Assembly (NCBI RefSeq): GCF_004010195.1
Contig: NC_057719.1
Coordinates: 8,242,224-8,306,223 of the forward strand
Length of the DNA: 64,000 nt
From: Chiloscyllium plagiosum
Taxonomy: Eukaryota
Reading direction: 5' to 3'
Under the pieces are notes generated by a model. That model saw nothing but the letters and a program-made list of their open reading frames with translations. It ran no database searches and was not told the origin of the DNA. Positions 7,532 through 39,872 of this stretch are shown in pieces (within the stretch, counting starts at the first letter, position 1; each line of letters opens with the position of its first letter). Position numbers and translations under genes: made by a program.

Positions 7532-7683
7532 GGAGATGCCGGTGTTGGACTAGGGTGTACAAAGTTAAAAATCATACAACACCAAACTATAGTTCAACAG
7601 GTTTAACTGGAAGCACTAGCTTTCGGAGCGCTGCTCCTTCATCAGGTGGTTGGACTATAGCCTGGTGTTGTGTGATTTTTAAC
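7532..7683 (-). mobile_element. Short Penelope-derived insertion carrying a minimal hammerhead ribozyme
   Basis: 13-bp TSD TTAGCTAAGATTA at 7519-7531 and 7684-7696; partially inverted ends; hammerhead core inside. Confidence 0.8.
7614..7648 (-). ncRNA. Minimal type I hammerhead ribozyme (intact core)
   Basis: Minus strand reads CAC-CUGAUGA-A-GGAGC agc GCUCC-GAAA-GC-UA-GUG: helix I CAC/GUG, 5-bp helix II, palindromic AGCU in place of helix III, CUA cleavage triplet. Confidence 0.75.
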
Positions 7684-8448
7684 TTAGCTAAGATTACAAT
7701 GGGATCTTGATCAATTGGGTCAATGGGCTGAGGAGTGGCAGATGGAGTTTAATTTTGATACATGTGAGGTATTGCATTTTGGTAAAACCAACAAGGGCAG
7801 TACTTACATAATTAAGAGTTGGACCTTTGAGTAGTGTTGTAGAACAGAGAGACCTAGGTGTTTAGGTACATAATTCTTTGAAGTTTACATTACAGGTAGA
7901 TATGGTGGATAAGAAGGTGTTTAGCATGCTTGCCTTCATTGCTCAGACCTTTGAGTACAGGAGTTGGGATGTCATGTTGAGATTGTACAAGACATTGGTG
8001 AGGCCTGTTCTGTTCTGGTCGCCATGTTATAGGAAAGATATTATGAAGCTGGAGAGGGTTCAGGAGAGATTTACCAGGATGTTGCTGGGAATGGAGGGTT
8101 TGAGTTATAAGAAGAGGCTGAATCGGATAAGACTTTTTTCACTGGAGCATAGGAGGTTAAGGGGTGACCTTAGAGAAGTTTATAAAACCATGAGGAGTAT
8201 AGATGAGGTGAATGGCAGGTGTCTTTTTCCAAGGACAGGGGATTTCAAGACAAGGGGGCATATTTTTAAGATGAGAGGAGAAAGATTTTAAAAAGACATG
8301 AGGGGCAACCTTTTTACACAGAGAGTGGTTTCAGTGTGGAATAACCTTTCAGAGGAAGTAGTGTATGTGGGTGCAATTACGACATTTAAAAGACATTTGA
8401 ATAAATACATGAATATGAAAAGTTTGGAGGGACATGGGTCAAATGCAG

Positions 8449-10233: not shown

Positions 10234-10559
10234 GCAGACAGGTGAGACTATTTTAATTTGGAATTATGGTCAACATGAACATGTTGGACCGAAGGGTCTG
10301 TTTCTGTGCTGTATGACTCTGACTCTATTGGCCAGCTCTGTGTTTACTCCATGACTCCATTTACCAAATGGAATAACTATATCCATCCCATCCACTTTTG
10401 AAGTCTCTAATATTCAATTTTGACATTCCTGCTGAGTTCCTGATTTTTTTTTAATCAGCCTGATCAGAGATGAGAAAGCTCCTTGCTAATGAAACTTAGG
10501 TTTTTTTAGCTTATCTGGAACTCTGACTCATCAATAACCTTGTGCAAGTCTTTTAAAAA

Positions 10560-10888
10560 TAGAATCCCGACAGTGTTGAAACAAGCCCTTCGGCCCAACA
10601 AATCCACACTGACTCTCTGAAGAGTAACCCACCCAAAACCTTTCCTTTACCCTCTTGCCCTACATTTACCCCTAACTAACACACCCCTGAACACGACAGG
10701 CAATTTAACGTGGCCAATTCACTTGACCTGCACATTTTTGGATTGTGGGAGGAAACCAGAGCAAACCTACACAGACACGGGGAGAAGGTGCAAACTCCAC
10801 ACAGACAGTCACCCAAGGCTGGAATCGAACCTGGATCCCTGGCGCTGTGAGGCAGCAGTGCTAGTCACTGAGCCACCATGTCGCCCAC
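10560..10888 (-). mobile_element. tRNA-derived SINE (HE1/V-SINE-like)
   Basis: Reverse complement match to 18152-18481. Confidence 0.85.
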
Positions 10889-12722
10889 ATGGTGATTTCC
10901 TTCGGGTCCCTTTCCCCAGTGGGCTGGTTCAAAAATTCCCTGCTGGCTTACAAGTCTAACTACGGCTTCTCCAACAAGCTCCAGTCAACCATCTTCACTC
11001 CTCAGTCTGAATGACAGTACAGTGCAGGGCCCAGTACATAACGCACTGTTATCATCCAGCACTGCAATTCTCTCCCTCAAGCAATCCATCAGTTTTAATT
11101 TGACTGCCTGTGCTCTGTTGGAGTTGAGACAGGCATTGGAGATTGCAACAAGAATAGCTTTGAGCTTGTGTCTTATGTACCGTTCAACCAGATGATGGGA
11201 CACAGGGCCCCCTGTAAAAACGAGGCAGACTGAAGAAAGGAGAATGTTACTTACAGATTGTGGCAAATTCCCTTCATTTGTTTATTGGGAAATGTGCCAA
11301 CACAGCCGGTTAGAATTGCTGCAAGCCGCATGGGAAACAGTTACAAGATATCTGTCTCCTTCTCTCACTGACTCCTGCTCAACCAGTGAAAAAAACCCTG
11401 CTTCCATCTGCTGGGAGAGAGGTTAGAACACAGAAGACAATCCAAACCTTAATGTTAGACATACGTTGTTTTATGATTGATGCTCGAAAGCACTTCTTTC
11501 CGCAAAGGGGACCAGAAATCTGAAACTCTCTCTCCCCCCCTAAAAGCTGCTGAGGTCACTGGGTGGAGGGAGGGGAGAAATTGCAAATTGGATCCATTTT
11601 TGTCAGGCGAGGAATGAAAGGTTATGGAATCCGAGCAAGTATACCATTAAGCATTACATTCAACGAGGAACTATTTGCTTGATGGAAAATGCTTGAGGGG
11701 CTGAATGGCCTCTATCAGTTGACAATGTGATTGGGCGCTTAACCTCCACTTCTCATGATTTCACAGACTGTGTTGGACGTAAAAGGATCCCTCTGTTGTT
11801 GAGTTGGAGACAGGGATTTTGCCCTTGATCCCGTTAGCCTGCAAACTCTGTGGATGTGTTCAGTTGAAATGTCATCAAACTTTGAACACTAAACTGTTAG
11901 AAAGCAAATATTTAATTGACAAATTTATAGGAAATGGCCAAAAAGAAAGTGGTGACAGTGGTGGAGACGATGGGAACGGGTGAGGGACAGGGTTTGAGGA
12001 AGGATTTTTCACATTTAGCCTGCAAACCTACTAATTGCAGTCTCTAGATGTTCGATGGAACCCCAACCCCCCCCAAAACCCAACAGTCATTCGGGGGGAA
12101 AAAAACAGAAAGTGCTGGAAAAACTCGGCAGGTCTGTGAGCAGCTGTGGAGAGAAAAACAGAGTTAACATCTAATGATGCTTCTTCAGGACATTCTGACT
12201 GGAAACATTAACTCTGTTTCTCTCTCCACGGATGCTGGCAGACCTGCTGAGTTTCTCCAGCATTTTCTGTTTTTGTTTCAGACCTTCACCCTCTACAGTT
12301 CTTTGTTTTATATAAGTTATTGAGGGAGAGAGTTTGATTTGTATGACCCTGCTTCCCAACATCACCCTGAGCCGTAATTTCAAGCTTGTTCTCCTTTGAT
12401 CTGGACTCCTTACAGTGCCTCCCATTATCTACCCTTCAAATTCTTTGACCATCTTAAACACTTCAATTTGATGATCCCTTAAACTGTACAAGCCTAGTCC
12501 ATGTAGTCTGCCATCATAAATTACATGCTTTGATCCTGATATCATACTGGTGAGTTTACACTATCCTGTCTAACATGAATATATCCTTTCTCGTGTCAAT
12601 GCCTGAAGCTAAATAGATCTCCAAATACTCAATGAACAAAGCTCTGTGCAATTTGTTGAACAGAGAATCTAAAAGCTTCAGGATGCTACTTGCAAGCCTG
12701 TCAACCTCAGGATCATTTTTTT

Positions 12723-13860
12723 TTTAGATTCAATTGCCTACAGAATGGAAACAGGCCCTTCAGCCCAACAAGTCACATTTGGATACAGAATTGGTTCAAA
12801 GGTAGAAGACAAAGGTGGAGGATTGTTTTTCAGACTGGAGACCTGTGACCAGTGGAGTGCCACAAGGATCGGTGCTGGGCCCTCTACTTTTTGTCATTTA
12901 ACATAAATGATTTGGATGCGAGCATAAGAGGTACAGTTAGTAAGTTTGCAGATGACACCAAAATTGGAAGTGTAGTGGACAGCGAAGAGGGTTACCTCAG
13001 ATTACAACAGGATCTGGACCAGATGGGCCAATGGGCTGAGAAGTGGCAGATGGAATTTAATTCATAGAACATAGAACATAGAAATTTTGGGAAAGGCAGA
13101 TCAGGACAGGACTTATATACTTGATGGTAAGGTCCTGGGGGAGTGTTGCTGAACAAAGAGACCTTGGAGTGCAGGTTCATAGCTCCTTGAAAGTNNNNNN
13201 NNNNNNNNNNNNNNNNNNNNNNNNNNNNNNNNNNNNNNNNNNNNGTCGGGGAGTCCAGAACTAGAGGGCATAGGTTTAGGGTGAGAGGGGAAAGATATAA
13301 AAGAGACCTAAGGGGCAACATTTTCATGCAGAGGGTGGTACGTGTATGGAATGAGCTGCCAGAGGAAGTGGTGGAGACTAGCACAATTGCAACATTTAAA
13401 AGGCATTTGGATGGGTATATGAATAGGAAGGGTTTGGAGGGATATGGGCTGGGTGCTGGCAGGTGGGACTAGATTGGGTTGGGATATCTGGTCAGCATGG
13501 ATGGTTTGGACCGAAGGGTCTGCTTCTATGTTGTACATCTCTATGACTCTATAAGTCCACACTGACCCTCCGAACAGTAACCCATCCAGACCTATCCCCC
13601 TACTCTATATTAACCCCTGACTAATGCACCTAACATTATGGGCAATTTAGCATGGTCAATTCACCCTAACCTGCATGCAATTTAGCATGGTCAATTCACC
13701 CTAACCTGCATACCTTTGGATTGTGGGAGGAAACTGGAGCACCCGGAGGAAACCCACACAGACACGGGGAGAATGTGCAAACTCCACACAGACAGTCGCC
13801 TGAGGCGGGAATTGAACCCAGGTCCTTGGCGCTGTGAGGCAGTGGTGCTAACCACTGAGT
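12723..13860 (-). mobile_element. SINE (minus) split by a CR1 3' fragment (plus, ~12779-13552)
   Basis: SINE tail at 12723-12778 and body at 13553-13860; the intervening sequence has FADDTKIG and the CR1 tail. Confidence 0.8.
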
Positions 13861-14739
13861 CAAATAAAGGTCTGGATTTTGACATTAGCTCCACAATTTA
13901 TAAAATGTGCAGGTGACAGACACCCCCTCTTGGGAGCAGCCTTCATTGATGCTCCTTATGTTAAACTTTTCACAGACTGATTCACACTCAGAAACATAGG
14001 AGCTGGAGTAGGCTATTCAGCCCCTCAGGCCTGCTCCACTATTCAATAGGACCACGGCTGATCATCCAACTCAGTCCCCATACCCTTTGGTGCCTTCAGC
14101 TGTAAGAGCTGTATCCGATTCCACCTTGAAAACATTCAATGTTTTGGCCTTTAATCCCTTTTCGTGACAGAGAATTCCGCAGGCGCACGACTCCCTGGGT
14201 GAAGACAGTTTGGTTTGTCTTCTTCCTTAAACCAGGACCCCTGGTTTCTGGACTCCCCAGTCACCAGAACATCCTAGGAACGTTGCAATGCTGTTGGAGC
14301 GGTGACAGTTTACTGTTATAATCTCAGGGCTTTTGATCCAGAGACCAATGTAATAATCTGAGGGCCTGGGTTCAATTCCTGCTGTGGCAAATGGTCAAAT
14401 TTGGATCCAAAAAAATCTGGGATTAAGAATCTAATGAAGACCATCAAGCCATTGTTAAAAAGAACCAAAACTACCTTCTTTACCCAGTCAGGCCTACATG
14501 TCACTCCAGGCCCACACCAGTGTGGCTGACTCTCAAATGCCTTTTGGGCAATTGGAAAAGGCAATAAATACCAGTGACCAGTGCCACCTCATGCTGTGAA
14601 TAAATCAAATCTTTATTGTGTTTAAACCCATTCAAACTTTATGTTTCTGTGAGATCTCCCCCACCCCCATTCTTCTTAACCACGTCGTCTCTCTTCATAT
14701 ATCAGACCTTCCACCCTAGGGAGCATTCAGGTAAGCCGG

Positions 14740-16282
14740 GTACAGTGTATCAGACTGACTCACACCCATGTAATGTCTCTCAGACTGACACACATGGGTA
14801 CAGTCCCTCAGACTGACTCACACCTGGATACAGTCCCTCAGACTGACTCACACCCAGGCATAGTCTCTCAGACTGACACACACCTGGATACAGTCCCTCA
14901 AACTGACTCACACCCAGGCACAGTCTCTCAGACTGACTCATACCCAGGCACAGTCCCTCAGACTGACTCACACCCAGGCAAAGTCTCTCAGACTGATTCA
15001 CACCCAGGCACAGTCTCTCAGACTGATTCACACCCAGGCACAGTCTCTCAGACTGACAAACACCTGGATACAGTCTCTCAGACTGACTCACACCCAGGTA
15101 CAGTCCCTCAGACTGACTCATACCCAGACACAGTCTCTTAGACTGACTCACACCCAGGCACAGTCCCTCAGACTGATTCATACCCAGGCACAGTCCCTCA
15201 GACTGACTCACACCCAGGCACAGTCTCTCAGACTGATTCACACCCAGGCACAGTCTCTCAGACTGACACACACCTGGATACAGTCTCTCAGACTGACTCA
15301 CACCCAGGTACAGTCTCTCAGACTGACTCATACCCAGACACAGTCTCTCAGACTGACTCATACCCAGGCACAGTCCCTCAGACTGACTCACACCCAGGCA
15401 CAGTCTCTCAGACCGATTCACACATGAGTACAGTCCCTCAGACTGACTCATACCCAGGCACAGTCTCTCAGACTGACTCACACCTGGATACAGACCCTCA
15501 GACTGACTCACACCCAGGCACAGTCCCTCAGACTGACTCACACCCAGGCACAGTCCCTCAGACTGACTCACACCCAGGCACAGTCTCTCAGACTGACTCA
15601 CACCCAGGTACAGTTCCATAAAAGACAATAGGTGCAGGAGTAGGCCATTTTGCCCTTCGAGCCAGCACCACCATTCAATATGATCATGGCTGATAATCCA
15701 CAATCAGTATCCTGTTCCTGCCTTATCCCCATAACCCTTGATTCCACTATCCTTAAGAGCTCTATCAGTCTCTTTCTTGAAAGTATCCAGAGACTTGGCC
15801 TCCACTGCCCTCTGGGGCAGAGCATTCCCTACACCCGCCACTCTCTGGGTGAAGAAGTTTCTCCTCAACTCTGTTCTAAGTGGCCTACCCTTATTTTAAA
15901 CTGTGTCTTCTGGTTCAGGACTCACCCATCAGCGGAAACATGTTTCCTGCCTCCAGAGTGTCCAATCCTTTAATAATCTTATACGCCTCAATCAGATCCC
16001 CTCTCAGCCTTCTAAACTCAAGGGTCTACAAGCCCAGTCACTCCAATCTTTTAGCGTAAGATAGTCCTGCCATTCTGGGAATTGACCGCCGACTGACTCA
16101 TACCTGGGTACAGTCCCTTAGACTGACTCACACCCAGGCACAGTGTCTCAGACTGACTCACACCCAGGTACAGTCTCTCAGACTGACTCACACCCAGGTA
16201 CAGTCTATCAGACTGACTCACACCCAGGTACAGTCTCTCAGACTGACTCACACCCAGGTACAGTCCCTCAGACTGATTCACA
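14740..16282. repeat. 30-bp minisatellite array 1 (CAGACTGACTCACACCCAGGCACAGTCYCT), interrupted at ~15618-16089 by a reverse LINE 3' fragment
   Basis: Clear 30-nt periodicity; about 29 + 6 units estimated from length. Confidence 0.95.
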
Positions 16283-16593
16283 CTGTTGAAAGCAGTTTCC
16301 CTGGCTGGTGTAAATAAGGTTTGCAATGACAGATAATTGGGATTATACCTTAGTTGATTACTTAAGCGATGTTGCTGCTGGAGTGCTTTTCCAGGGTCAT
16401 AAATCTGAATGGCAGTGGGTTTGGAGTCGGGGAATGAGTGGTATGCAGTAAGGGAGGACCAGTGGGGGTCTGGAAATGTTGAGCACATACGGGAGACAGA
16501 CAGTGAGCAGGCGACAATATCCGTGTTTTACACTACAATACCTCCCCTTAGCCAATCGATAACGACTGCCTATTGTCAACATCTGTGTTCTTT

Positions 16594-23570: not shown

Positions 23571-25337
23571 TTCTCAGACTGACTCACATCCAGGTACAGT
23601 CCCACAGACCGACTCACACCCAGATAGAACATAGAACATAGAACAATACAGCACAGAACAGGCCCTTCGGCCCACGATGTTGTGCCGAACTTCTAACCTA
23701 GGACTGACTCACATCCAGGTACAGTCCCACAGACCGACTCACACCCAGATGTAGTTGCACAGACTGACTCATACCAGGGTACAGTTCTACAGACTGACTC
23801 ACACCTGGGTACAGGCCCTCAGACTGACTCACACAAGGGTACAGTCCCACAGACTGACTCACACCCAGGTACAGTCCCTCAGACTGACTCACACCAAGGT
23901 ACAGTTCCACAGACTGACTCACACATGGGTACAGCCCCTCAGATTGACTCACACCCAGGTATAGTCCCTCAGACTGACACACACCCAAGATACAGTCCCT
24001 CAGACTGACTCAAAACCCAGGTACAGTTCCACAAACTGACTCACACCTGAGTACTGTCCCTCAGAATGACTCACACCTGGGTACAGTCTGTCAGACTGAC
24101 TCACACTGGGGTACAGTCTGTCAGACTGACTCACACCTGGGTAGATTCTGTCAGACTGACTCACACTGGGATACAGTCTGTCAGACTGACTCACACTTGG
24201 GTAGATTCTGTCAGACTGACTCACACCTGGGTACAGTCTGTCAGACTGACTCACACCTGGGTACAGTCTGTCAGGCTGACTCACACCTGGGTACAGTCTG
24301 TCAGACTGACTCACACCTGGGTCCAGTCTGTCAGACTGACTCACACCTGGGTACAGTCTGGGTAAAAACAATGACTGCAGATGCTGGAAACCAGATTCTG
24401 GATTAGTGGTGCTGGAAGAGCACAGCAATTCAGGCAGCATCCGAGGAGCAGTAAAATCGATGTTTCGGGCAAAAGCCCTTCATCAGGAATAAAGGCAGTG
24501 AGCCTGAAGCGTGGAGAGATAAGCTAGAGGAGGGTGGGGGTGGGGAGAAAGTAGCATAGAGTACAAGAGGTGAGTGGGATGCCCTGGGGTTGAAGTGTTC
24601 TGAGGCGGAAGATGAGGCGTTCTTCCTCCAGGCGTCTGGTGGTGAGGGAGCGGCGGTGGAGGAGGCCCAGCACCTCCATATCCTCGGCAGAGTGGGAGGG
24701 GGAGTTGAAATGTTGGGCCACGGGGCGGTGTGGTTGATTGGCGTCTCGGCGATGTTCCCTAAAGCGCTCTGCTAGGAGGTGCCCAGTCTCCCCAATGTAG
24801 AGGAGGCCGCATCGGGAGCAACGGATACAATATATGATATTAGTGGATGTGCAGGTAAAAGTTTGATGGATGTGGAAGGCTCCTTTGGGGCCTTGGATAG
24901 AGGTGAGTGAGGAGGTGTGGGCGCAGGTTTTACAGTTCCTGCGGTGGCAGGGGAAGGTGCCAGAATGGGAGGGTGGCTTATAGGGGCGTGGCCCTGACCA
25001 GGTAGTCACGGAGGGAACGGTCTTTGCGGAAGGCGGAAAGGTGTGGGGAGGGAAATATATCCTTGGTGGTGGGGTCTTTTTGGAGGTGGCAGAAATGTCG
25101 GCGGATGATTTGGTTTATGCGAAGGTTGGTAGGGTGGAAGGTGAGCACCAGGGGCGTTCTGTCCTTGTTACGGTTGGAGGGGTGGGGTCTGAGGGCGGAG
25201 GGGCAGGATGTGGACGAGATGTGTTGGAGGGCATCTTTAACCACGTAGGAAGGGAAATTGCGGTCTCTAAAGACCCAAGTCCAGTCTGTCAGACTGACTC
25301 ACACCTGGGTAGAGTTTGTCAGACTGACTCACACCTG
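23571..25337. repeat. 30-bp minisatellite array 2 (same family as array 1), interrupted by a LINE tail (~23624-23700) and a Penelope-like element (~24362-25272)
   Basis: 30-nt periodicity; the distal units are the variant CAGACTGACTCACACCTGGGTACAGTCTGT; the array resumes after the insertion. Confidence 0.95.
24362..25272 (-). mobile_element. 5'-truncated Penelope-like element (GIY-YIG endonuclease + terminal repeat with hammerhead motif)
   Basis: CKTC...NIIYCIRCSRCGLLYIGETGHLLAERFREH...VAQHFN...RRLEEERLIFRLRTLQPQG; reverse of cctgatgaagggcttttgcccgaaacatc at ~24458-24488. Confidence 0.9.
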
Positions 25338-25836
25338 ATTTTCAATTAAATCAAAAAGGCTTTTGGGCCACTATTTTAAAGAACAGAAGGATTCCTGGTC
25401 AATGTTTGTCCCCCAAACAATGAAGAACTGTTCTGGTCATCATCACAGTTTATGATTACATTTCTTCCCTCTCAGATGCTGGAGCAGTCCGTGTCTAAAT
25501 GCAGCAAGATTTTGGTAACCTTCACTCTTGGGCTGGAAGGGAACAAATAAATATTCATGCTACACGAGTGCCCGGCGATAATCATCTCCGACAACAGAGA
25601 ATCTAACCATTATTCTTGACGTTCAATAACATTACCATCACTGAACCACTAAATGATTATTTGGGAACACCGCCAAAAGCAAGTTCTCCCCCAACTACCC
25701 CCTTCCCCCAAACCAAGCCACTCACCATCCTGACTTGGAAATATATCACCGTTCCTTCACTGGCGCTGGGTCAACGTTCTGGAAATCCCACTGTGCAGGC
25801 ATTGTGGATCTATCTACAGCTCAGCAGTCCACCAAG

Positions 25837-27425: not shown

Positions 27426-28499
27426 CTGAGTCCAGGTCTTTTTGACCAGCAGCGATGGAGGATAGCTACAATTGACTCTTCAGGAAAAGAAGATTAACGT
27501 CAAGGTGTAGTTAATTCCGTGAAAGCTCTTGGTTTGGGTTTCATTGGCGGTCAGACGAAATTGCAAAGGCCGTCGGGAACCAGAGTTGGTACATCTGTCT
27601 CCTTGGTGAGGGTGGGGGAATCCTCATGTATAGTCTCCACCCAACACTGTGTGCCATCATCAGGCTGTGAAATCACTAGCCCCTTCAGAGCTGACAGCTT
27701 ATTTACAGCTAATGTCTTTGCTTAAAGTAACGCAGCAGGGAATAGGAGAGTACTCTAGCAATGTGCAGTGGGCTCCTTAATCCCTGGGAAAGTCACCATA
27801 TGCCCATACTGCTTTTCCAGTTACCTTTGACTGAAATTCAACTCTGTGAGTGCCCCCTGCGGAGGACTAATGTAAGAACCTGCTCCTCCTCTGAAGTTTG
27901 CAATCCTCCACCAGCCACTCAGCCCTCCCTCACCCCTCCCCACCTCCTTCAGGGTGTAAGTTCTGTCTGATTGTCCATATACAGGGTTGCACTGCAGTGG
28001 CAATCACTCTCACTGCACGCAGAACCTCTCGGCCAGCAAAGGTGCCATAATATTCAGTCTGTGTGTGTGTGTGTGTGTAGCTCTCTCCAGACCCATCCCA
28101 TCAGCACTGTAGGCTAATGGCCTGCTGGTTAGCACATGGGAGGCTGTGGGAGCTTGCTGTGCGTGAATTGGCTGATGGATGGTGCTCCTTGCCTTACAGC
28201 AGTGGGACACGCCGGTATGTGCCTCCATTTGGCCTTCAAGCCTTCGCCAATGTTGTTAGGGCTTTGCAGGCGCCATACAAATGCACGCCCTTCCTTTTTT
28301 CACTGATGAAACTTTGACCGTAAAGTTCCCGGAGCAGACTCAAAACAAAACTCAGACTGAACTCTCTCTCTCTCTCTCTCTGTGTGAGTATCTATTACTT
28401 CCACATTTTTCCAACAACAAACGACATTGAAGCTTCGGGTAATCCTGTTTTTTTTTGGAATACAATCTGCGTTCGGTTTTTTTTTGAAACACCAAGTTG

Positions 28500-28570
28500 A
28501 CTCTTTTCCAAAGCGAGCAGCTCACGTGAAGATTTTTCCGGGAGATTAGCCGGGCTCTGTGTATATATGG
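28500..28570 (+). promoter_or_regulatory. Core promoter of the deiodinase gene: palindrome TCACGTGA (28522-28529) and TATA box (TATATA 28562-28567)
   Basis: Motifs seen directly ~400 bp upstream of the ATG and followed by a purine-rich leader. The TSS (~28590-28600) is inferred from TATA spacing only. Confidence 0.65.
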
Positions 28571-28702
28571 ACGGCACTCCAGCAGCTCCTACAGACTCTG
28601 GGACTCGTCTCAAGGGAGCAGCGTCTGCAAACTGGGGGAGAGAGAGAGAGGAGAGATAGAGAGGGGCAGGACAAATATATAGAGAGAGGGGGGGCAGGAG
28701 AG

Positions 28703-28714
28703 ATGGAAATTTAG
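28703..28714 (+). promoter_or_regulatory. uORF1 (ATG GAA ATT TAG; M-E-I-stop)
   Basis: gagATGG strong Kozak context, within the predicted 5' UTR. Confidence 0.6.
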
Positions 28715-28793
28715 AGAGAGAGAGGCAGGAGCGATAGGAGAGAGAGCTGGAGAGTAACATTGGCCAAGCTGAAACAAGAGTTTTAAACGAGTG

Positions 28794-28802
28794 ATGGAAT
28801 AG
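28794..28802 (+). promoter_or_regulatory. uORF2 (ATG GAA TAG; M-E-stop)
   Basis: gtgATGG strong Kozak context, within the predicted 5' UTR. Confidence 0.6.
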
Positions 28803-28969
28803 TTTTCCCAGCATTTTGAAAAGTGTAAGAGCGTCCACCTGGGGGAGAAAAAGACAGCTACAGACCCCAGGGTCTCCTTTCTGCTCTCTCTCCCCCAATT
28901 CCCAGCACTAACCCCTCCTCCCCATAGAGGTAGAGGAGGGTGGTGGGAGGGGAAGGGGAAGGGGCAGGG

Positions 28970-29821
28970 ATGGGTTTGCGCAGTGTTGACCTCCTCATCA
29001 AGCTGCAGATCCTGCCGGGTTTCTTCTCCAGCTGCCTGTTCCTGGCCGTGTACGATTCGGTGGTACTGCTGAAGCAGGCAGTGTCCCGCCTGAGCGGTCC
29101 AGCAGCTGGAGATGGAGTGCCCCGCATGCTGACGGTGGAGGGGATGCAGACGGTGTGGAGGAGCTTCCTGCTGGATGCCGCCAAGCCGGTGAGGCCGGGG
29201 GGCCAGGCCCCCAACCCCCGGGTGGTGAGGCTGGGCGAGCGGCAAGGTGAGGCGGAGCGGCTGCAGAGGGTGGGAGGCCTGGCGGAGTGCCGCCTGCTGG
29301 ATTTTGCCAGCCCTGGGCGACCCTTGGTGGTCAACTTCGGCTCGGCCACCTGACCCCCCTTCGTGGCCAGCCTGCCAGCTTTCTGCCGCACGGCGGAGGA
29401 GTACCAGGCTGGCGCTGACTTCCTGCTGGTCTACATCGATGAAGCTCACCCCTCAGACGGCTGGGCTGCCACCTCGCCCTTCCAGCTGCCCCGTCATCGC
29501 ACCCTGGCCGAGAGGTGTTCCGCCGCTAGCCTCCTCCTCCGGCACTTCCCGGTGCCCCCCCAGTGCCCGGTGGTAGCCGACTGCATGGACAACGAAAGCA
29601 ACGTGGCGTACGGCGTCTCCTTCGAGAGGTTCTGCATCGTGCAGGACCAGAAGATTGTGTACTTGGGGGGCAAGGGGCCCTTCTTCTACAGCCTGGCAGG
29701 GGTCAGGGCATGGCTTGAGCAACACCGTCTGAAACAGGGGGCAAAGGTTGGCAGCGATGCCCCCCACGACCTCCCGGCTCCCATTCCAGCTGCTACCCAC
29801 AGCCCTCAACTGGACGTATAA
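28970..29821 (+). CDS. dio2: Type II iodothyronine deiodinase-like selenoprotein, single coding exon, 283 aa, Sec (TGA) at 29351-29353
   Basis: ORFs 28940..29353 and 29363..29821 are in the same frame and joined by TGA-CCC-CCC-TTC. Joined protein: MGLRSVDLLIKLQILPGFFSSCLFLAVYDSVVLLK...RPLVVNFGSAT-U-PPF...DFLLVYIDEAHPSDGW...AYGVSFER...QKIVYLGGKGPFFY. These are D2-type motifs (N-terminus resembles D2 MGILSVDLL..LQILP.FFS.CLFLA.YDSV.LLK; Ala two residues before Sec where D1/D3 have Cys). ATG in strong context gggATGG. No frameshift or other internal stop. Ortholog versus paralog is unresolved, so read the symbol as dio2-like. Confidence 0.95.
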
Positions 29822-30499
29822 CATCCTGGGAGTGATCTGAAGAAGAATCACTGAAGATATCCAACACCAATGAAGCCATTTCAGCCATTACCAGATGCCA
29901 ACCATTCACCACCATGTCCTTCTCTCCTTAGATGCTGCTGAGCTTCTCTCCGCCTGATTCCGATGTCCGGCCAAAGCCACCGTGTTTTGCTTTGTTTCCC
30001 CTGTGCCTGGCAGTGCTTCCAGTCGCTCCTCTGCCCAGTTCAATGGGCAGACCTATCACTGCCAAGGGGCACCGAACACTGGGCCATAAATACCAACATA
30101 TTCTGGCAGCTTTCGCAACCCGAGATTAAATTTTGTGTTTTACGAAAAGCATCAAGACAAGCAAGAGAACCTTACCCCCTCGCCCGCCTTCAGGTTACAC
30201 AAAAGCCACGTTAAAAACCACCATGAGCGGTCTCTTTCCAAGTGATTAAAAAGACTGAATTGAACAAGAAAGTCTTTCTTCTGGACAGAGACTGTTTTGT
30301 TTAATTACCGTGGGACTGCTTTCAAAATATCCTCCAGGTTTTCCATGTTGATTTTATGTTTAGAAAGTAATTTATTTGTTTTAGTTGAATTCTGTAGCGC
30401 TCTCAAATGTTTGCAGGTCTAACTCAGTTCTTTTGCCATCGTTCTCTGTGCGTTTTCATCAGTGTGCAGAAAATTGCATGTTACATCAGCTTCGTCCTG

Positions 30500-30650
30500 T
30501 CTTATAGTTCAGAAGAGGAGTCCAGAAGGACTCGAAACATTTAACTTTGTCTGTCTGTCTGTCTCTCTCTCTCTCTCCACAGATGCTGCCAGACCTGTTG
30601 AGTTTCTCTCTGTGTTTGCTTTCGTTTTCCAGCACCTGTGGAATTCTGCC
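30500..30650 (+). mobile_element. Degenerate Penelope-derived short element with hammerhead relic (30506-30546) inside the deiodinase 3' UTR
   Basis: AGTT-CAGAAGA-G-GAGTCC agaa GGACTC-GAAACATTT-AACT, then ...ctctccacagatgctgccagacctg.tgagtttctc..., matching other copies at ~37528-37660 and ~48605-48740. Confidence 0.75.
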
Positions 30651-30714
30651 TCTCTGTTCTAAGTTATTGAGTTCCTGGGTCCACCTGCAGCAACCGATGA
30701 GGCCAGGCTGGGGA

Positions 30715-30802
30715 GGGAGTGCGTGTGCAGAATGAAGATAACTGACCAAAGAGTCCTGCACTCAGTCAGTATTCGGAAGAGGAAGCAGCACTGCCCACTC
30801 CC
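30715..30802 (+). promoter_or_regulatory. SECIS element (type II) in the 3' UTR of the deiodinase gene
   Basis: ATGA at 30732-30735; helix II GATAACTGAC / GTCAGTATTC; unpaired AAA at 30748-30750; apical mini-stem GAGT/ACTC; GGAA at 30775-30778 completes the GA/GA core; lower stem GGGAGTG (30715-30721) / CACTCCC (30796-30802). Lies between the stop codon and the poly(A) signal. Confidence 0.9.
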
Positions 30803-30918
30803 ATTGTGGAAGAATGTGGAAGGAGTCTGACTGTCTGCCTTGGAATTATTTATATAGATAGATAGATAGATAGAATCAACTTGTGGTGCTATGCAGTGTG
30901 CACTTTTATCTGTGTTAT

Positions 30919-30924
30919 AATAAA
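30919..30924 (+). terminator. Polyadenylation signal AATAAA of the deiodinase gene
   Basis: AATAAA ~120 nt after the SECIS, followed by GT/T-rich sequence (ggttttgtagctgacttgttt). Confidence 0.75.
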
Positions 30925-31397
30925 AGGTTTTGTAGCTGACTTGTTTCCGTGATGCTTTATTTAATTGTACAACAATAACTGAGGGACCCTGCCTCTGACC
31001 TGGAAGGTGGGCTCCAAAGATGTCCTCACCCATCCTGTCAGATTGGTTACATATATTTGTAATGGGTGTCTGGTTATGTTGCAGTGGTAGCTGACTTCTT
31101 TTGCATCTGTGTTTGGTTATTTAATTGAACAATGATTGAGGATCCCTTGTGGTGCTGTGGTAGTGTCCCTACCTCTGAGCCATAAGGCCCACATTCAAGT
31201 CCCACCTGGTCCAGAGGTGTGCATTAACATCTCTGAATAAGTACTTTAGGAAATATCTGTGTTAATAATTGTCCCAAAGCCACTCTGCAGTTAATGAATT
31301 ACTTTCTAAACGCTTAGTCAGTGACACTGCCATGTGACAAAGAGCAAGATTTAGTTTTTGTTTCAAAGTGATATTGATTGGGAATAAATATTGGCTA

Positions 31398-34032
31398 CTC
31401 AGCAAATGGGGGATGATCTCTCCTGCTTTCCTTTGAGACACGCCTCGGGCGAGCGTTGCTGCTCACCCACCTGTCGCTGCTTACTAGCTGAATAGGAAAT
31501 AACCAACCCCCGAGCATAGGCTTTAGCTGTTTCCCAAAGAATGGATGGGCTACTGGCTGAGTCTGAGTTAATATCTAAAAAAGCCCTGAGCTCAGTAAAA
31601 AAGAATTCAATAAACTTGTTATCCTTAAGGATGAAGGGGTCCAGTCGCCAGTGCCTTGAGCCTACCACTGTATCCTTATTCTTAACCATTAAATACACTA
31701 GGGTGTGATCAGAAATAGCCATTATGCCAATTGTACATGACATCTCCGAGCTCAGATGTGCTGCGGGAGTCAGAAAAAGATCAATCCTGGTATGGCATTT
31801 ATGTGGGTTCGAAAAGAACATGAAGTCCCTGCCAGTTGGGTGAAGGTGCCTCCAAACATCTACCAACCCCAATTCAGCACATGAATTCCTTAATCGTTTA
31901 GATCGCAAAGAAGATATCAGTGGGCCTTCAGGCAATCTGTCTCCCGTAGGGTCTATGAAACAATTGAAATCCTCTCCAATGATGATTTGTTGAGATACAA
32001 GGTTAACCAGTCTAGAAAGTGCGTCTGTCAAGAATTTAAGGGGGTGGGATGGGGGACAGGAAACATTTAAGATCCCGTATTCTTCCCCATGTATCAAAGC
32101 TTTAAGGATTACAAATCTCCTGTGTGTGTCTTTAATGCACTCTAAAAACTTAAATGAGAGATTCTTTCTAACTAGAATGGCCACCCCTCGAGTCCTCGTA
32201 TTGAAAGATGAAAAATAAACCCAGTCATACCCATTCTGTTGCAGCTTCAAATGTTCTGCATCATCCAGTTGTGTTTCTTGTAATAAGGCAAGATCCATCC
32301 TCTCCCTTTTAAGGCTGGAGAATACCTTCTTCCTCTTGACAGGTGAATGACTCTTCTTAATATTCTAGGTGCACCATTAGCCATGACCTTCCATAGCACC
32401 ACCTAGAGTCCAGAGAGGAAGAACCCAAACTGCAGATTGCTGAGCTTTAATGCAAAAGAATCTACAAAACCCAAAAACTACACAGACTAAAATAACTACA
32501 GCCAACAAATCTACAAAACTTACAAAATCTATGTACAGCAAAAACAGAAACACAAAAAATTGTCAAAGGCACTGATTGGAGGAACCATCCCGACCGCCCT
32601 CTCAAATCCTACCAACTCGGGTCATACCACATACACCAACCGCCGTCTCAACTCCGACCAACCCGGGTCGTGCCACATACACCAACCGCCGTCTCAACTC
32701 CGACCAACCCGGGTCATACCACATACACCAACCACCCTCTCAACTCCTACCAACTCGGGTCGTACCACATGCACCAACCACCCTCTCAACTCCTACCAAC
32801 TCGGGTCATACCACATACACCAACCACCCAGTAGAGAAAAAAACAAACACCCAAAGCAAGGTTTGTAATATAAACAAGTAATCTAAAAATAACCATGTTA
32901 CCCATCCCTTAACATAAGTTAAAAATTAAAGATAAATACTCTATCCATCCCGGACATCATTTCACGCAACTTATTACCAGAAAGGAGACTCCACCAAGTC
33001 CTTTTTAAAAAAGATTAAACGTGAACAGCTCTGTCCTATTCGGCCATTCAACTTAAGTCAATGTGACCACAAAGTTCTTCATTTTTTCTGGCGAGTCGAA
33101 CAAATGGATGAATCCGTTATGATTAATCGGAAGCACTACTGGATATCTTAAAGAATACGGGATCCCATGCTCTCTCAATCTCCTCTTGACACCGTCGTAG
33201 GACTTCCTTCTCCGGACCACTGCCGCCAAGAAGTCTTGAAAAAACATGATCCTGGAGCTGCCACATACCAACGCCCTCAGGTCCCTCCCCTGGGTTTGAG
33301 AGGCTTCCATGACCTTCTGCTTGTCTTTATAATGATGGAACCTCACCAGGACAGGACGTGGGCACTGCTCCATGCCTGGCCTTCATGCCACGATCCGATG
33401 GGCTCTTTCAATTGTTATCCTTCCCTTCTCAACCTCCAAACCAAGGAACTCCAGGAACCACTTCTCAAAGAACTCCACCGGCCACTCACCTTCTGTCCTG
33501 TCCAGTATGCCAACAAAGCGCAGGTTCTTTCTCCTGCCCCTGTTTTCGGGATCGTTTACCAGATCCAACAGACCCTGGTCCTGTGTTTCCAGAGCTTCAA
33601 TCCGGCTCTTGGAGGAGTCAGTCTATGCATCTTCCCCACCAGCCTGGCGCTTGAGCTCATCGGTCCTTTGTCTCAGGTCTTGCACAATAGCATATACAGA
33701 AGCCAGCTTCTCCCTGATTTTTCCTGGATCTGCCTCCCCAGGACCTCACGAGATCTGGCCAGCTCCTCAACGAGGGTCTGGTGAATAAGCGAGCCTGCTG
33801 CTTCAGACGACTGGGCCATGGCCCGGGCCCTGGATGGGCTTCCTCCTTTCGTCCCATTCTCCAGCTGCAAGGACAAAGGTAAGTCAATTTTTTTTCAAGT
33901 TTCTAGCTCTTTTCCTGTGTTTTTACTCGCAATAAAGTGTTTGGGATGGATCCTGGCTCTGTTGGGTCAGTGTTGCAGTGCAGAACCCAGCAAATGAGAT
34001 CCTAACAGGACGCCGCCATCTTGGTTCGCCCC
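31398..34032 (-). mobile_element. L1-clade LINE, 5' portion only (5' end, degenerate ORF1, ORF2 endonuclease)
   Basis: 5' end GGGGCGAACCAAGATGGCGGC; ORF1 motifs ENRGRRKNLRFVGI, IERAHR, PRPVLVRF, IMFFQDF; APE motifs LLQET, RGVAILV, IIGEDFN, DVWR.LHP, TRIDLFL, ISDH. No RT seen. Confidence 0.9.
32593..32830. repeat. 46-bp tandem repeat (~5 copies) in the L1 inter-ORF region
   Basis: Unit aaccgccgtctcaactccgaccaacccgggtcgtgccacatacacc; offset 32641 to 32687 = 46. Confidence 0.9.
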
Positions 34033-34422
34033 TTAAGTCCCTTTTAAACCATTCCCCTTTCACCTTAATCCTATGCCCTCGAGTTTCGGACTCTCCTACC
34101 CTGGGGAAATGACCTTGTCTGTTTACCCTATCCATGCCCCTCCTGGTTTTAATAAGGAGGAACAAGACAGAAGCAAATAAAGTGAATGAGAGTAAAATTA
34201 GAGACTTGATACTCAAAGAGCGGGAAAGGACAATTCGATGGAGAGAACGAGAGAGAGAGTCAAAGTTACTTGAAGGGAAAAGTCTATAGTGATATGGAGA
34301 AAATGATTCCCCAATGAGCCAGATGCCTCTTTTTCTGCTCAATATTCAACATGAGAAGCATAATGGAAAAGTAAGGAAACAGTTTTAGCATTTTAAATTA
34401 TTAAATCCTTGCACTTTAATTG

Positions 34423-35762
34423 TGTTGGCATGGTGGCTCAGCAGTTGGCACTGCTGCCTCACAGTGCCAGGGACCTGGGTTCGATTCCAGCCTCGGGTCT
34501 CTGTCTCTGTGGAGTTTGCATGTTTTCCTTGTCTATGTGAGTTTCTTCCCACAGTCCAAACATGTGCAGGTTAGATGGATTGGCCGTGCTCAATTGCCCA
34601 TAGTGTCCAGGGATGTGTAAGCTAAATGAATTATGGTCCTGATACGGTCTCCTCTACATTGGGGAGACAGAATGCCTACTTGCAGAGTGCTTCAGAGAAC
34701 ATCTCGGGGACACCTGCACCAACCGACCCCACCGCCCCGTGGTCAAACACTTCAACTCCCCATCCCACTCTGCCGAGGACATGCAGGTGCTGGGCCTCCA
34801 CCACCGCCACTCCTTAACCACCCGACGCCTGGAGGAAGAATGCCTCATCTTCTGCCTCGGGATCCTCCAACTCCATGGCATCAATGTGGATTTCACCAGT
34901 TTCCTCATTTCCTCTTCCCCCACCTTATCCCAGTTCCAACCTTCCAGCCCAGCACCGCCCACATGACCTGGGTCACCTCTCAATTTTCCTTCCCACCTAT
35001 CCAGTCCACCCTCCCCTTTGACAATCATCATTGTCCCCACCTCCATCTACCTGTCACATTCCCAGCTAACTTCCCCCCAACCGTGCCCCCTCCCATTTAT
35101 CTCACCACCCTCTCGGCTCACAGCCTCATTCCTGATGAAAGGCTTTTGCCCGAAATGTCCATTCTCCTGTTCCTCGGATGCTGCCTGACCGGCTGTGCTT
35201 TTCCAGCATCACACTCTTCGACTTTCATTTCCAGCATCTGCATTCCTCACTTTTGCCAAGCTAAATAGAGTCATAGAGTCATAGAGATGTACATCATGGA
35301 AACAGACCTTTCGGTCCAACCCATCCATGTGGACAGATATCCCAACCCAATGTAGTCCCACCTGCCAGCACCCGGCCCATATCCCTCCAAATCTTAAATG
35401 TTGCAATTGTACCAGCCTCCACCACTTCATCTGGCAGCTCATTCCATACACGTACCTACCTCTGTGTGAAAAGGTTGCCTCTTAGGTGTCTTTTATATCT
35501 TTCCCCTCTCACCCTAAACCTATGCTCTCTAGTTCTGGACTCCCCCACCTCAGGGAAAAGACTTTGCCTATTTATCCTATCCATGCCCCTCATAATTTTG
35601 TAAACCTCAATAAGGTCACCCCTTAGCCTCTGATGCTCCAGGGAAAAATGGATCCGCCATGGGAAATGCAGGGTTAGGGGGATGGGGTGGGTCTGGGTGG
35701 GATCCTCTTCGGAGCGTCAGTGCAGGTTTTGTGGCCTGCTTCCACACTGTAGGGTTCTATGA
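34423..35762 (+). mobile_element. SINE split by a Penelope GIY-YIG fragment (34628-35257, +) and a CR1 3' fragment (~35267-35648, -)
   Basis: TSD AAGCTAAAT at 34619-34627 and 35258-35266 flanks the Penelope piece (HFNSPSHSAEDMQVLGL...RRLEEE); the SINE tail resumes at ~35655. Confidence 0.8.
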
Positions 35763-38208
35763 TAATTATACATAGGAGTAATGCACTTCAGTTACAATTG
35801 TTCGCTTTCTGGATCTTCACGGTAGCGTTTGGCATCAGGACCATGAATCAACTCCTTAAATAGCTCCATACGCTATGAAATAGCAGCTGTAATTACCATT
35901 CATGCCTATTGAGGGCATATACCCAGCAAATCCTTGACTCTCACTGGGAGATTGATGGCAAACTCCTTGGTTTTTCCAAGGCCCATGAAGAACGATGTGA
36001 ATTGTCCAGCCATTTGTAAAGGTTCACCACTCGGGACTGTGTCCTTCCATTGTATGTCACCTTCCCTGTTGCTGTTCCAACCGTGGTAAGCTTATGTTTT
36101 GCCTGGAATCAGATTCAAGGAAGGATGTTCTTGGATGTGAATGACCAGCCGGTTGCCTGTTTCATGGGGCAGACTGGGGGCCAAGAGTATGATGGTGACC
36201 TCCTGTGATGGAGCTGTGTTTAACCTGGCCTGTCCCTTTAAGGTTGCTGACAGCAGCAGATAATTGGTTTCAAAAGCGACATCCTGGTAATTGTAACTGG
36301 CTTAAATTTCGAGCTCCAAGAGAAGGGGGTCTGTGAACAAATTAATTGGGTTTCTTTTTTCTCCCTAAGCTCCCTTTGGAACTGTACCAAGGTGTGACAG
36401 GCAGGATCTCTGGAGTGTGGTGGATACCTGTTAGACAGGAGGCAGAATGGCTCAAATAAAGAATGGTAAAGTATACGTAAGAAAAAGAGAGAGAGGAAAA
36501 AATTGGATGAAATGTGACACTACGGGATTCTGTGGCAATGTCCACTCTGAGAAAAAGAACAGGAAATGACATCACCATAGGAAATTACATCACCACAGGA
36601 AATGACATCACCAAGCCAACGAAACCAAAACATATAAATGGACAGCAGGAATCATCAGCAGTGCTTCGTCTGGAGGCTCACTGAAGATGTTACCTAGCGT
36701 GGTGATGAAACATCTGAAAATGAACCTTTCAGCTCAGTGAGCAAACCTACATCCAGAACCTCAACTTGAGCTACAAACCTTCTCAAAACTCGCTAGTGTC
36801 CACTTTGTTTGTCTAGGATAAACTACAATCTGACCCAAATAGTTCAGCATGTGTTGATTACCAAGTGGAGTGATTTGTGTAGACCGCAGCAAAACCCGAA
36901 TGCAGCGACAAAGTCGTGGGATTTAAGTCTGACCCATTGACAGTGTCACCAAGTCTATCCTTCTGAGTAAAAGAGTTCCTAAGGCACTCCACCAATGTTT
37001 GGCGTAGAAGGAGACAAAGTTTGGGAAATGCTTTTATTTTATTCACTTGTGAGATGAGGCTGCCAGTGTGTACTGCCCGTTCCCAGTTTCCCTTCAGAAG
37101 GTGGTACTGAGCTGTCTCTCTGAACGGCTGTAGGCCACCCACTGTAGATGCTGTTCATTAGGGAATTCCAAAACTTTGACCCAGTAGAACTTCCGAAACT
37201 GGTATCGATGGAGAAAAGTTTGGTTCCCTCATGTACACAGACCTTCATTTATATTGCACCCTTTCACAACCTTAGATCTTTGCACTCATTGGAAGTTCTT
37301 GCTAAAATCGAGTCCCAGTTATGAAGTACTATAAACAGTAGGTCAATATGTACACAGCAAGCTCCCACAGACAGCAATGTGACAACAGATCACCTGTTTA
37401 AGTGACAGAAACAGACATTGCTGGAGAAACTTGACAGGCCTGGTGAGGTCTGCTGAGAGAAAGTGAAGATAACATTTGGAGCCCAATGATACTTCATCAG
37501 AATTTCCGAAGAAGGGCTACAGATAAAAAGTTCTGAAGAAGGGTCACTGGATCTGAAACATTAACTCTGTTTCTCTCTCCACAGATGGTGCCAGACCTGC
37601 TGAGTTTTTCTAGCAATTTCTGTTTTTGTTTCAGATTGCCAGCATCTGCATTTCTTTGCTGTAGTTTTACGTTCTAGTGACATTGGTTCAGAGAGACATG
37701 GTGGGCAGGTTATTGGATATAATGCCCTGTGCTTTCTTTTAGAAACAGTGCCATCTTTTACAGTCAGCTGAGAGGGCAGTAGGGACCACTGTTTAACGTC
37801 TCATCTGAAAGAGGACACATCTGACAGTGCAACACTCTCTGAAAACATTCAGTAAAGTGCCCATAGGGGGTTGTTGTACAAAAGTAGGTTTATGGGTTAT
37901 AGGCTGCACATTAGCATGGTTTGAGCATTAGTTAATGGACAGGGTAGTGTAGATTTAGATTTAGATAACTTACAGTGTGGAAACAGGCCCTTTGGCCCAA
38001 CAAATCCACACCGACCCTCCAACGAGCAACCAAACCAGACCAATTCCCCTGCGTTTATTCCTTCACCTAACACTACGGGTAATTTAGCATGGCCAATTCA
38101 CCTAACCTGCACATTTTTGGACTGTGGGAGGAAACCGGAGCACCCAGAGGAAACCCACGCAAGGGTCATTTTTGGGATGTAAGTAGTGGAGTAATACAAG
38201 AATGCATG

Positions 38209-39872
38209 CAAGGTTTGTGAAGGTTTGTAGCTCAGGTTGAGGTTTAGGGTGTAGGTTTGCTCGCTGAGCTGTAGGTTTGATATCCAGATGTTTCATTACC
38301 TGGCTAGGTAACATCATCAGTGGCGACCTCCAAGTGAAGCGAAGCTGTTGTCTCCTGCTTTCTGTTTATGTGTTTGTCCTGGATGGGGTTCCTGGGGTTT
38401 GTGGTGATGTCATTTCCNNNNNNNNNNNNNNNNNNNNNNNNNNNNNNNNNNNNNNNNNNNNNNNNNNNNNNNNNNNNNNNNNNNNNNNNNNNNNNNNNNN
38501 NNNNNNNNNNNNNNNNNNNNNNNNNNNNNNNNNNNNNNNNNNNNNNNNNNNNNNNNNNNNNNNNNNNNNNNNNNNNNNNNNNNNNNNNNNNNNNNNNNNN
38601 NNNNNNNNNNNNNNNNNNNNNNNNNNNNNNNNNNNNNNNNNNNNNNNNNNNNNNNNNNNNNNNNNNNNNNNNNNNNNNNNNNNNNNNNNNNNNNNNNNNN
38701 NNNNNNNNNNNNNNNNNNNNNNNNNNNNNNNNNNNNNNNNNNNNNNNNNNNNNNNNNNNNNNNNNNNNNNNNNNNNNNNNNNNNNNNNNNNNNNNNNNNN
38801 NNNNNNNNNNNNNNNNNNNNNNNNNNNNNNNNNNNNNNNNNNNNNNNNNNNNNNNNNNNNNNNNNNNNNNNNNNNNNNNNNNNNNNNNNNNNNNNNNNNN
38901 NNNNNNNNNNNNNNNNNNNNNNNNNNNNNNNNNNNNNNNNNNNNNNNNNNNNNNNNNNNNNNNNNNNNNNNNNNNNNNNNNNNNNNNNNNNNNNNNNNNN
39001 NNNNNNNNNNNNNNNNNNNNNNNNNNNNNNNNNNNNNNNNNNNNNNNNNNNNNNNNNNNNNNNNNNNNNNNNNNNNNNNNNNNNNNNNNNNNNNNNNNNN
39101 NNNNNNNNNNNNNNNNNNNNNNNNNNNNNNNNNNNNNNNNNNNNNNNNNNNNNNNNNNNNNNNNNNNNNNNNNNNNNNNNNNNNNNNNNNNNNNNNNNNN
39201 NNNNNNNNNNNNNNNNNNNNNNNNNNNNNNNNNNNNNNNNNNNNNNNNNNNNNNNNNNNNNNNNNNNNNNNNNNNNNNNNNNNNNNNNNNNNNNNNNNNN
39301 NNNNNNNNNNNNNNNNNNNNNNNNNNNNNNNNNNNNNNNNNNNNNNNNNNNNNNNNNNNNNNNNNNNNNNNNNNNNNGGGTGTGCCGTTGGTTTGTTTGT
39401 AGATTATGTTGTTGAAGGTGAAGTGGGTGGTGAGGCACAGGTCCACTAGCTTCATGATGTTTTCGCTCAGAATGTGATTGATGGTGGTTGGGGTGGGTGT
39501 GATGGCCTCTTCTAAAAGTGTAGTAAGTGTTTCCTTTGCCAGGTCGATGTTGATGGAGGTGAACAGTGCTGTTACGTCGAATGAAATCATTGTTTAGCCT
39601 GGGCCAGAGAATTCCTAGAGGCCTGGCACTCCAACCACAACGCCATAAACAAACACATAGATCTAGATGCCATCTATCAATCCCTCAGAAAATGAACAGG
39701 AAATGACATCACCACAAACCCCAGGAACCCCATCCAGGACAAACATATAAATAGAAAGCAGGAGACAACAGCTTCGCTTCACTGGGAGGTCGCCACTGAT
39801 GATGTTACCTAGCCGGGTAATGAAATGTCTGGATATCAAACCTACAGCTCAGCGAGCAAACCTACACCCTAA
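38209..39872 (-). mobile_element. Penelope-like element (second family) with inverted terminal repeats; interior mostly gap
   Basis: RT motif MISFDVTALFTSINIDLA...LCLTTHFTFNNIIYKQTNGTP; 13-bp TSD ACAAGAATGCATG at 38196-38208 and 39873-39885; hammerhead motifs at 38284-38323 (-) and 39793-39832 (+). Confidence 0.85.

Follow-up and report, generated by a model that had tools for sequence, protein, structure and literature searches.

A predicted type 2 SECIS element within the 3′ UTR of a DIO2-type deiodinase gene with an unbroken coding sequence in Chiloscyllium plagiosum

The window, by which the whole stretch of 64,000 nucleotides is meant, carries a deiodinase frame with one in-frame TGA and, downstream of it, a hairpin resembling a selenocysteine (Sec) insertion sequence (SECIS), which raises the question of whether this TGA is read as Sec, whether the hairpin is the signal for it and which deiodinase the gene codes for. 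Judging by its sequence and position, the hairpin is very probably the ordinary Sec signal of the shark type 2 deiodinase, and it is likely to function as a eukaryotic type 2 SECIS within the 3′ UTR of a cartilaginous-fish DIO2 ortholog. The gene features considered are as follows:

28970..29821, + strand: uninterrupted coding sequence (CDS) for a type 2 iodothyronine deiodinase, with a length of 283 aa when TGA is taken as Sec
29186..29191, + strand: codons 73-74 (Pro/Val), the site of the coding intron in bony-vertebrate DIO2, with no intron here
29351..29353, + strand: in-frame TGA, codon 128, at the catalytic Sec position (FGSAT-U-PPF)
29822..30924, + strand: presumptive 3′ UTR of ~1.1 kb, from the stop codon to AATAAA, covered in parts by contig pieces of three runs
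30919-30924, + strand: AATAAA, probable polyadenylation signal, 140 nt past the 3′ core of the SECIS

The TGA at 29351 is the sole in-frame TGA of the 283-codon frame starting with ATG 28970, and it aligns with the catalytic residue of mouse Dio2 (9h48). The encoded protein scores 286 bits with the Pfam T4_deiodinase profile and 224.8 bits against mouse Dio2 (9h48) versus 158.8 bits against Dio3 (4tr3). The catalytic site FGSATUPPF has Ala at the proximal position and Pro-Pro after Sec, both listed as DIO2 features in the sections of PMC11592359 cited here, and the residues U128, H160, C199, F218-E219-R220, K228 and K235 align with the catalytic and substrate residues of mouse Dio2. The same sections assign the equivalents of H160, C199 and F218-E219-R220 to the Dio2 active site and those of K228 and K235 to ubiquitination. 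The three-residue insertion before the distal Cys is present (HFPVPPQC199), as is the Gly-Lys motif (GGK235) together with both ubiquitination lysines, K228 and K235 (K234 and K241 in mouse). The N-terminal Dio2 insertion (destruction loop) has a near-equal length and does not keep the EK[TI][AV] motif, which is also missing from the bird-cluster protein. At the 3′ end of the frame there is a Pro/Ala-rich tail (29738-29821, + strand) extending ~27 aa beyond the usual end of DIO2 and absent in Callorhinchus milii and the two closest relatives.

The half of the protein preceding the TGA is 97% identical to that of Chiloscyllium punctatum, 88% to that of Rhincodon typus and 69% to that of Scyliorhinus torazame, and the half following it is 70-80% identical to the closest relatives. 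Trees were built from rows hand-picked from ~400 stored proteins, with DIO1-like and DIO3-like outgroups labelled by us from motifs. The tree of post-UGA halves, with 27 rows, places the window protein inside a 17-row DIO2 clade supported at 100/97, within which it groups with C. milii and two further proteins on a branch with 89/75 that is not starred; the N-terminal tree (21 rows) is unresolved, with one of its 18 branches starred. The D2 ancestry proposed in the first-pass annotation is thus borne out by the protein, both through its preference for Dio2 over Dio3 and through its place in the DIO2 clade, and it is on the protein that this ancestry rests, the SECIS itself, with the supposed likeness of its letters to the mammalian DIO2 SECIS put forward at first pass, being no evidence of it here.

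The two coding exons expected of DIO2 are not found, the CDS being continuous in genomic DNA. According to PMC3316567, in the part cited, all selenoprotein genes of vertebrates apart from Dio3 and SPS2b are multi-exon; dio2 is likewise given as multi-exon and dio3 as intronless in vertebrates (PMC8143656), and pig DIO2 has two coding exons (PMC11167750). The unbroken shark DIO2 CDS is an exception to this multi-exon rule as far as the coding region is concerned. The position of the bony-vertebrate intron, after the YKQ codon, was deduced from read-through products among the database proteins. Gln occupies the junction codon in 207 of 217 DIO2-type N-terminal halves; of these 207 relatives, 151 stay in frame past the junction codon, whereas the other 56 either diverge or end there, 46 of the 56 continuing with Val, as would be expected of a GT donor that is read through. 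The 10 sequences without Gln are the window protein, those of three named sharks and of two lampreys, three proteins from a single cluster and one other protein. This pattern, drawn from non-independent rows and giving neither the gene structure of those species nor the choice between gain and loss, seems compatible with a splice constraint that outside bony vertebrates was lifted or is absent.

Also absent is the third of the insertions specific to Dio2, which is located at the loop-D tip. The loop-D segment consists of 9 residues in the window protein, P0217, P0218, C. milii and one invertebrate-like protein, that is, four residues fewer than the 13 found in 124 of the 146 motif-bearing proteins (10 residues occur in three, 11 in nine, 12 in three and 14 in two). 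Loop-D length varies within DIO2, frogs having shorter, intermediate loops, so the insertion is typical of DIO2 rather than strictly defining. It has been linked to substrate positioning in Dio2 (PMC11592359, in the part cited), and the chondrichthyan loop-D, being four residues short, lacks the insertion so linked.

It is possible, if somewhat doubtful, that cartilaginous-fish DIO2 represents the ancestral DIO2/DIO3 state, with an intronless CDS, a compact UTR with a near SECIS and a short DIO1/DIO3-like loop-D. On this view both the DIO2 intron and the loop-D insertion would have been acquired on the bony-vertebrate stem, and the intron would have fixed the junction Gln, a point supported by the Gln in 207 of the 217 halves. 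Were this so, shark D2 could serve as a natural intermediate in which to test the traits of an outer-ring, short-lived enzyme, and the locus would record one of the rare intron gains in vertebrate genes that can be dated. A literature search covering few subscription journals returned no paper devoted to shark dio2 gene structure, and the parts of PMC7681243 cited here contain nothing on this structure; public annotations, or the intron-marked Fig. 4/S4 of PMC13134290, may already show the shark intron pattern.

An intronless CDS combined with a short 3′ UTR would also be found if the SECIS works and the gene is a retro-derived copy of DIO2, either replacing an intron-bearing parent or existing beside it. 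Such an origin would agree with the protein identity of only ~62% to bird-cluster DIO2 and with the GC3 of 0.80 in the CDS versus mostly 0.42-0.50 GC in the window, as well as with the statement in PMC13134290, as far as cited here, that intronless predictions of selenoproteins are for the most part pseudogenes and that retrotransposition gave rise to SEPHS2b, SEPHS2b being an intronless retrocopy that replaced SEPHS2a in placentals (PMC3316567, PMC13134290). It is nevertheless rather improbable, given that no second, conventional DIO2 appears for the named chondrichthyans among the protein matches listed (120 of 134, 99 of 99 and 120 of 143), where the 99 N-terminal matches include one DIO2-type cluster per named shark, that C. 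milii belongs to the same short-loop lineage and that the AATAAA is not followed by an A-run in the genomic sequence. In the sections cited of the survey PMC13134290, the dataset of which includes nine chondrichthyan genomes, DIO2 duplicates are reported only in salmonids and lampreys, and a chondrichthyan duplicate goes unmentioned. Based on these copy counts and on the survey, the gene is likely to be the DIO2 ortholog of the shark. In bony vertebrates DIO2 has NRXN3 and CEP128 among its neighbours. In pig it is linked to TSHR (PMC11167750).

The gene was compared with contigs of three sequencing runs (X1, X2 and X6), which are guessed to be of RNA origin and cannot reveal transcript ends. 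The X2 contig pieces cover 28438-30537, and five X6 pieces cover 28748-30923, one of them ending at 30923, inside AATAAA, which fits a 1.1-kb UTR, a contig end not being the same as a transcript end. The X1 contig covers 30587-30825, including the SECIS core, without differences from the window. The microsatellite at 30539-30586 is bridged by no contig piece, although pieces cover both the CDS and the SECIS, and no splice joint within the gene is listed among the contigs of the three runs. Apart from repeats, the pieces of X1, X2 and X6 fall within 28438-30923. One related contig extends over the SECIS; across 337 nt it differs by 6 substitutions and by 12 gap letters, most of them at places not listed. 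The raw-read RNA run X15, sampled at ~2%, gave 58 partial reads, nearly all on the repeat at 31146-31239, and is uninformative on expression.

The distance from the stop codon TAA (29819-29821) to the SECIS core is 910 nt, in agreement with the ~0.9 kb read at first pass, and the distance from the Sec TGA is 1378 nt. A eukaryotic SECIS is expected in the 3′ UTR of the same mRNA, more than 51-111 nt after the in-frame UGA, and 1378 nt exceeds this minimum; it is an ordinary distance within the mammalian range of 207-5207 nt given in the cited part of PMC3316567. The UTR had been described as compact compared with mammals, and so it is, with 1.1 kb against an average of 5174 nt for mammalian Dio2 (PMC3316567). 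A second AATAAA is located at 31383. Two acceptor-like sites occur in the 3′ UTR (29905-29945 and 30535-30600, + strand), each followed by ATGCTGC, the second one lying after a (TCTG)n(TC)n microsatellite, 150 nt ahead of the SECIS core. A 3′ UTR intron with its acceptor-like end at 30582, comparable to that of zebrafish dio3b, was considered and is unsupported, as no joint is listed and unspliced contigs reach the microsatellite.

Several features are located upstream of the CDS. A G-quadruplex-type motif with several G3-G4 runs (28938-28974, + strand) ends across the DIO2 start codon; the X6 contigs break at this motif, which could affect translation initiation. An acceptor-like sequence at 28907-28928 (+ strand), consisting of a CTAAC branch-point-like element, a pyrimidine tract and TAG, is situated just before the ATG, making a 5′ UTR intron possible, with no joint listed in the four runs. 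Three upstream ATG frames (28567-28659, 28703-28714 and 28794-28802, + strand) of 30, 3 and 2 codons lie within the region covered by the X2 contig, and mammalian DIO2 is known for its uORFs. The stretch 28523-28567 (+ strand) contains a CACGTG E-box 39 bases before TATATA, resembling the CRE-plus-TATA layout of the mammalian DIO2 promoter; the X2 contig begins upstream of it, at 28438.

The remainder of the window is rich in repeats. These include satellite-like tandem arrays at 14680-16527 and 23978-25349 that give rise to long repetitive open frames, a short high-copy repeat at 31146-31239, probably a SINE fragment, which attracts most reads and contigs, a 321-aa open frame on the - strand (31399-32364) resembling by eye a LINE endonuclease domain, and many decayed LINE-like fragments across the window. 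A six-frame Pfam scan of bases 1-14702 detected reverse-transcriptase fragments only.

The SECIS letters quoted in the first-pass annotation are identical at every letter to positions 30723-30778 of the + strand. The parts of the putative element are:

30715..30802, + strand: predicted type 2 SECIS including possible helix I, assigned from pattern fit, folding and a weak Rfam alignment
30715-30728 with 30788-30802, + strand: possible helix I
30732..30778, + strand: SECIS from core to core, with AUGAA, helix II, AAA bulge, 4-bp apical stem and GGAA
30732, + strand: pre-core A
30733-30736, + strand: 5′ core UGAA
30737-30746 pairing with 30765-30774, + strand: helix II
30747-30750, + strand: unpaired C-AAA (AAA at 30748-30750)
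30751-30754 with 30760-30763, + strand: apical stem enclosing a 5-nt loop
30775-30778, + strand: 3′ core GGAA

The core UGAA/GGAA fits the UGAN/KGAW rule given in PMC3753652 (in the part cited), and from its letters the quartet is predicted to form non-canonical tandem G.A pairs. Helix II consists of 8 Watson-Crick pairs out of 10, pairs 3 and 4 being neighbouring mismatches (U.U and A.A), which is within the type 2 definition of ~10 pairs with no more than two mismatches. The AAA is located 11 nt past AUGAA, type 2 elements having an unpaired AA at 11-13 nt, and the apical mini-helix (helix III) is present with 4 pairs, the probability of which is 0.71-0.97 in all but one of the 14 folding contexts. 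In these 13 contexts, pair probabilities of 0.7-0.99 hold for the apical stem together with the six upper pairs of helix II; in the one other context another fold displaced the whole hairpin. The two lowest pairs of helix II vary with folding context (0.07-0.86). The long helix I closing at 30715/30802 reaches 0.84 only in a tight cut-out and 0-0.59 in wider contexts; helix I satisfies the SECISearch pattern, and its register shifts with the context. The folding energy of the SECIS region is not significant (z from -1.8 to +0.6 over five stretches) and was dropped as support for the SECIS on account of these z-scores.

The two adjacent mismatches may make the putative SECIS a moderate or weak one. 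Adjacent mismatches in helix II are penalised by the published SECIS grading, and mismatches in helix 2 are associated with a weak human SECIS, that of Gpx3, which is still functional (PMC2761289, in the part cited). The U three bases before AUGA, described in the same part as one half of a predictor of weak elements, is absent, the base at 30729 being A.

Three of the four SECISearch patterns were re-implemented from the supplement of PMC3753652, and the hairpin satisfies all three, strict, default and loose, being the only strict match within the 3′ UTR. The published grading code, worked by hand, gives 2.0 without and 3.0 with the Covels bonus, which corresponds to grade B, or to grade A should the Covels score reach at least 15. 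The strict pattern matched 14 of 600 shuffled UTRs, three of the 600 with both folding energies equally low, and our own SECIS descriptor matched 37 of 1000 dinucleotide-shuffled UTRs, or 10 of 1000 when the mini-stem was demanded. On both strands of the 64 kb there are 7 strict, 14 default and 24 loose SECISearch matches, and with seven strict matches the pattern alone is unconvincing. One of these strict matches (24371-24417, + strand) is located 4.6 kb upstream of the gene in repeat-like sequence and looks like chance; it has a lower energy than the hairpin at 30733-30778, again marking the pattern alone as weak.

The Rfam model SECIS_1 (RF00031) aligns with 30724-30789 over model positions 1-64 of 64, with 16.8 bits and an E-value of 5.6, as the third by score among six weak Rfam matches in the UTR. 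The covariance-model check suggested at first pass thus yielded no more than a match below threshold: the model aligns from end to end, and the score stays under the gathering cut-off of 35 bits, so the hairpin is not filed as an RF00031 member. No Rfam match at the gathering level was found over the whole 64-kb window, and in a 12-kb Rfam search reporting matches to E 10 the SECIS_1 match to the hairpin was not among the 17 matches. The models ODC_IRES, Plastid-psbA-2 and TUG1_3, as well as miRNA models on purine/pyrimidine runs, found in the UTR and at 24-36 kb, were far under their cut-offs and were taken as chance.

The low Rfam score and the adjacent mismatches, together with the second AATAAA at 31383, could be taken to mean that the hairpin is a SECIS that has decayed or plays a secondary part and that recoding is governed by a different element further downstream, as in the long mammalian UTR. 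This is very unlikely, since functional human elements such as that of Gpx3 also carry helix 2 mismatches (PMC2761289, in the part cited), and since the + strand of 30778-39454 contains no further strict or default match and a single loose one, at 31982, overlapping the endonuclease-like LINE frame of the opposite strand. A Sec-dependent gene needs a SECIS, and the hairpin is the only strict + strand candidate from the stop codon to 39454; it is this context that carries most of the weight in regarding the hairpin as the working SECIS of the gene.

The coding sequence on both sides of the TGA was examined for constraint by comparing contigs of two related runs with the window; the 40 of 90 table rows listed include all but one of the 30 differences shown by the contig that spans 29138-30205, and at least 21 of the differences among these listed rows fall in the CDS. 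Nine of the 10 listed substitutions before the TGA are synonymous, and so are 8 of the 11 after it, versus 4.3 expected (P ~0.02). Among the indel rows listed (12 of 15) none is located in the CDS, and the UTRs do contain indels. The frame stays open for 155 codons after the TGA. The database proteins of C. punctatum and S. torazame stop exactly at the TGA position, and gene callers routinely end proteins at Sec codons (PMC13134290, in the part cited). It can hardly be believed that the locus holds a processed pseudogene, or a gene truncated at TGA 29351, with the hairpin as a remnant or a chance fold, for although chance pattern matches are common (seven strict ones in 64 kb) and in two sharks the annotated protein stops at the TGA, such stops are routine for gene callers, the 155 codons past the TGA keep their identity to relatives, synonymous changes are in excess on both sides of it, and the listed indels spare the CDS. 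The proposal that TGA 29351 is read as Sec through a type 2 SECIS is upheld by the agreement of pattern, position, the UGA at the catalytic site and the coding constraint following it.

According to established SECIS biology (PMC2761289, PMC11167750, in the parts cited), from which SECISBP2 binding, read-through and enzyme activity are predicted for this gene, the UGAA/GGAA quartet on the mRNA would form a tandem sheared G.A kink-turn bound by SECISBP2, which together with eEFSec and Sec-tRNA would recode UGA 29351 as selenocysteine 128. The product would be a 283-aa membrane-anchored outer-ring deiodinase converting T4 to T3.

A SECIS at this place is what a specialist would expect, and the element as such is routine. 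It supports the annotation of the shark gene as one 283-aa selenoprotein, the entries of two sharks stopping at the UGA. The unbroken CDS raises the question of intron gain versus loss, and the short loop-D offers a natural variant for studies of D2 regioselectivity.

Compared with the eukaryotic type 2 (form 2) SECIS, the hairpin is alike in its AUGAN/NGAN quartet matching UGAN/KGAW, its 10-bp helix II with the quartet, AAA 11 nt past the core, extra apical stem and location in the presumptive 3′ UTR. It differs from RF00031 SECIS_1 in scoring 16.8 bits, below 35, with two adjacent mismatches low in helix II, and in having a helix I whose register depends on context. Like mammalian DIO2, the protein possesses Ala instead of Cys at the proximal position, an N-terminal insertion close in length to the long one of Dio2, three extra residues ahead of the distal Cys, a Gly-Lys motif and the two ubiquitination lysines, and like pig DIO2 the gene has a predicted type II SECIS (PMC11167750, in the part cited). 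Unlike pig DIO2 with its two coding exons (PMC11167750), the CDS here is in one piece, and unlike mammalian DIO2, with its 3′ UTR of 5174 nt on average (PMC3316567, in the part cited), the UTR is ~1.1 kb; moreover, there is no second in-frame UGA, the tail is ~27 aa longer, loop-D is four residues shorter and the destruction loop does not preserve the EK[TI][AV] motif. With vertebrate DIO3 the gene shares a CDS without introns and a short loop-D, whereas its protein belongs to the DIO2 clade and has proximal Ala instead of Cys and Gly-Lys instead of Gly-Arg. A parallel in gene structure is SEPHS2b, an intronless working selenoprotein gene where other vertebrates carry introns, with the difference that no intron-bearing parent was seen here in chondrichthyans and that retrotransposition, the known origin of SEPHS2b, is for the shark gene only a possibility.
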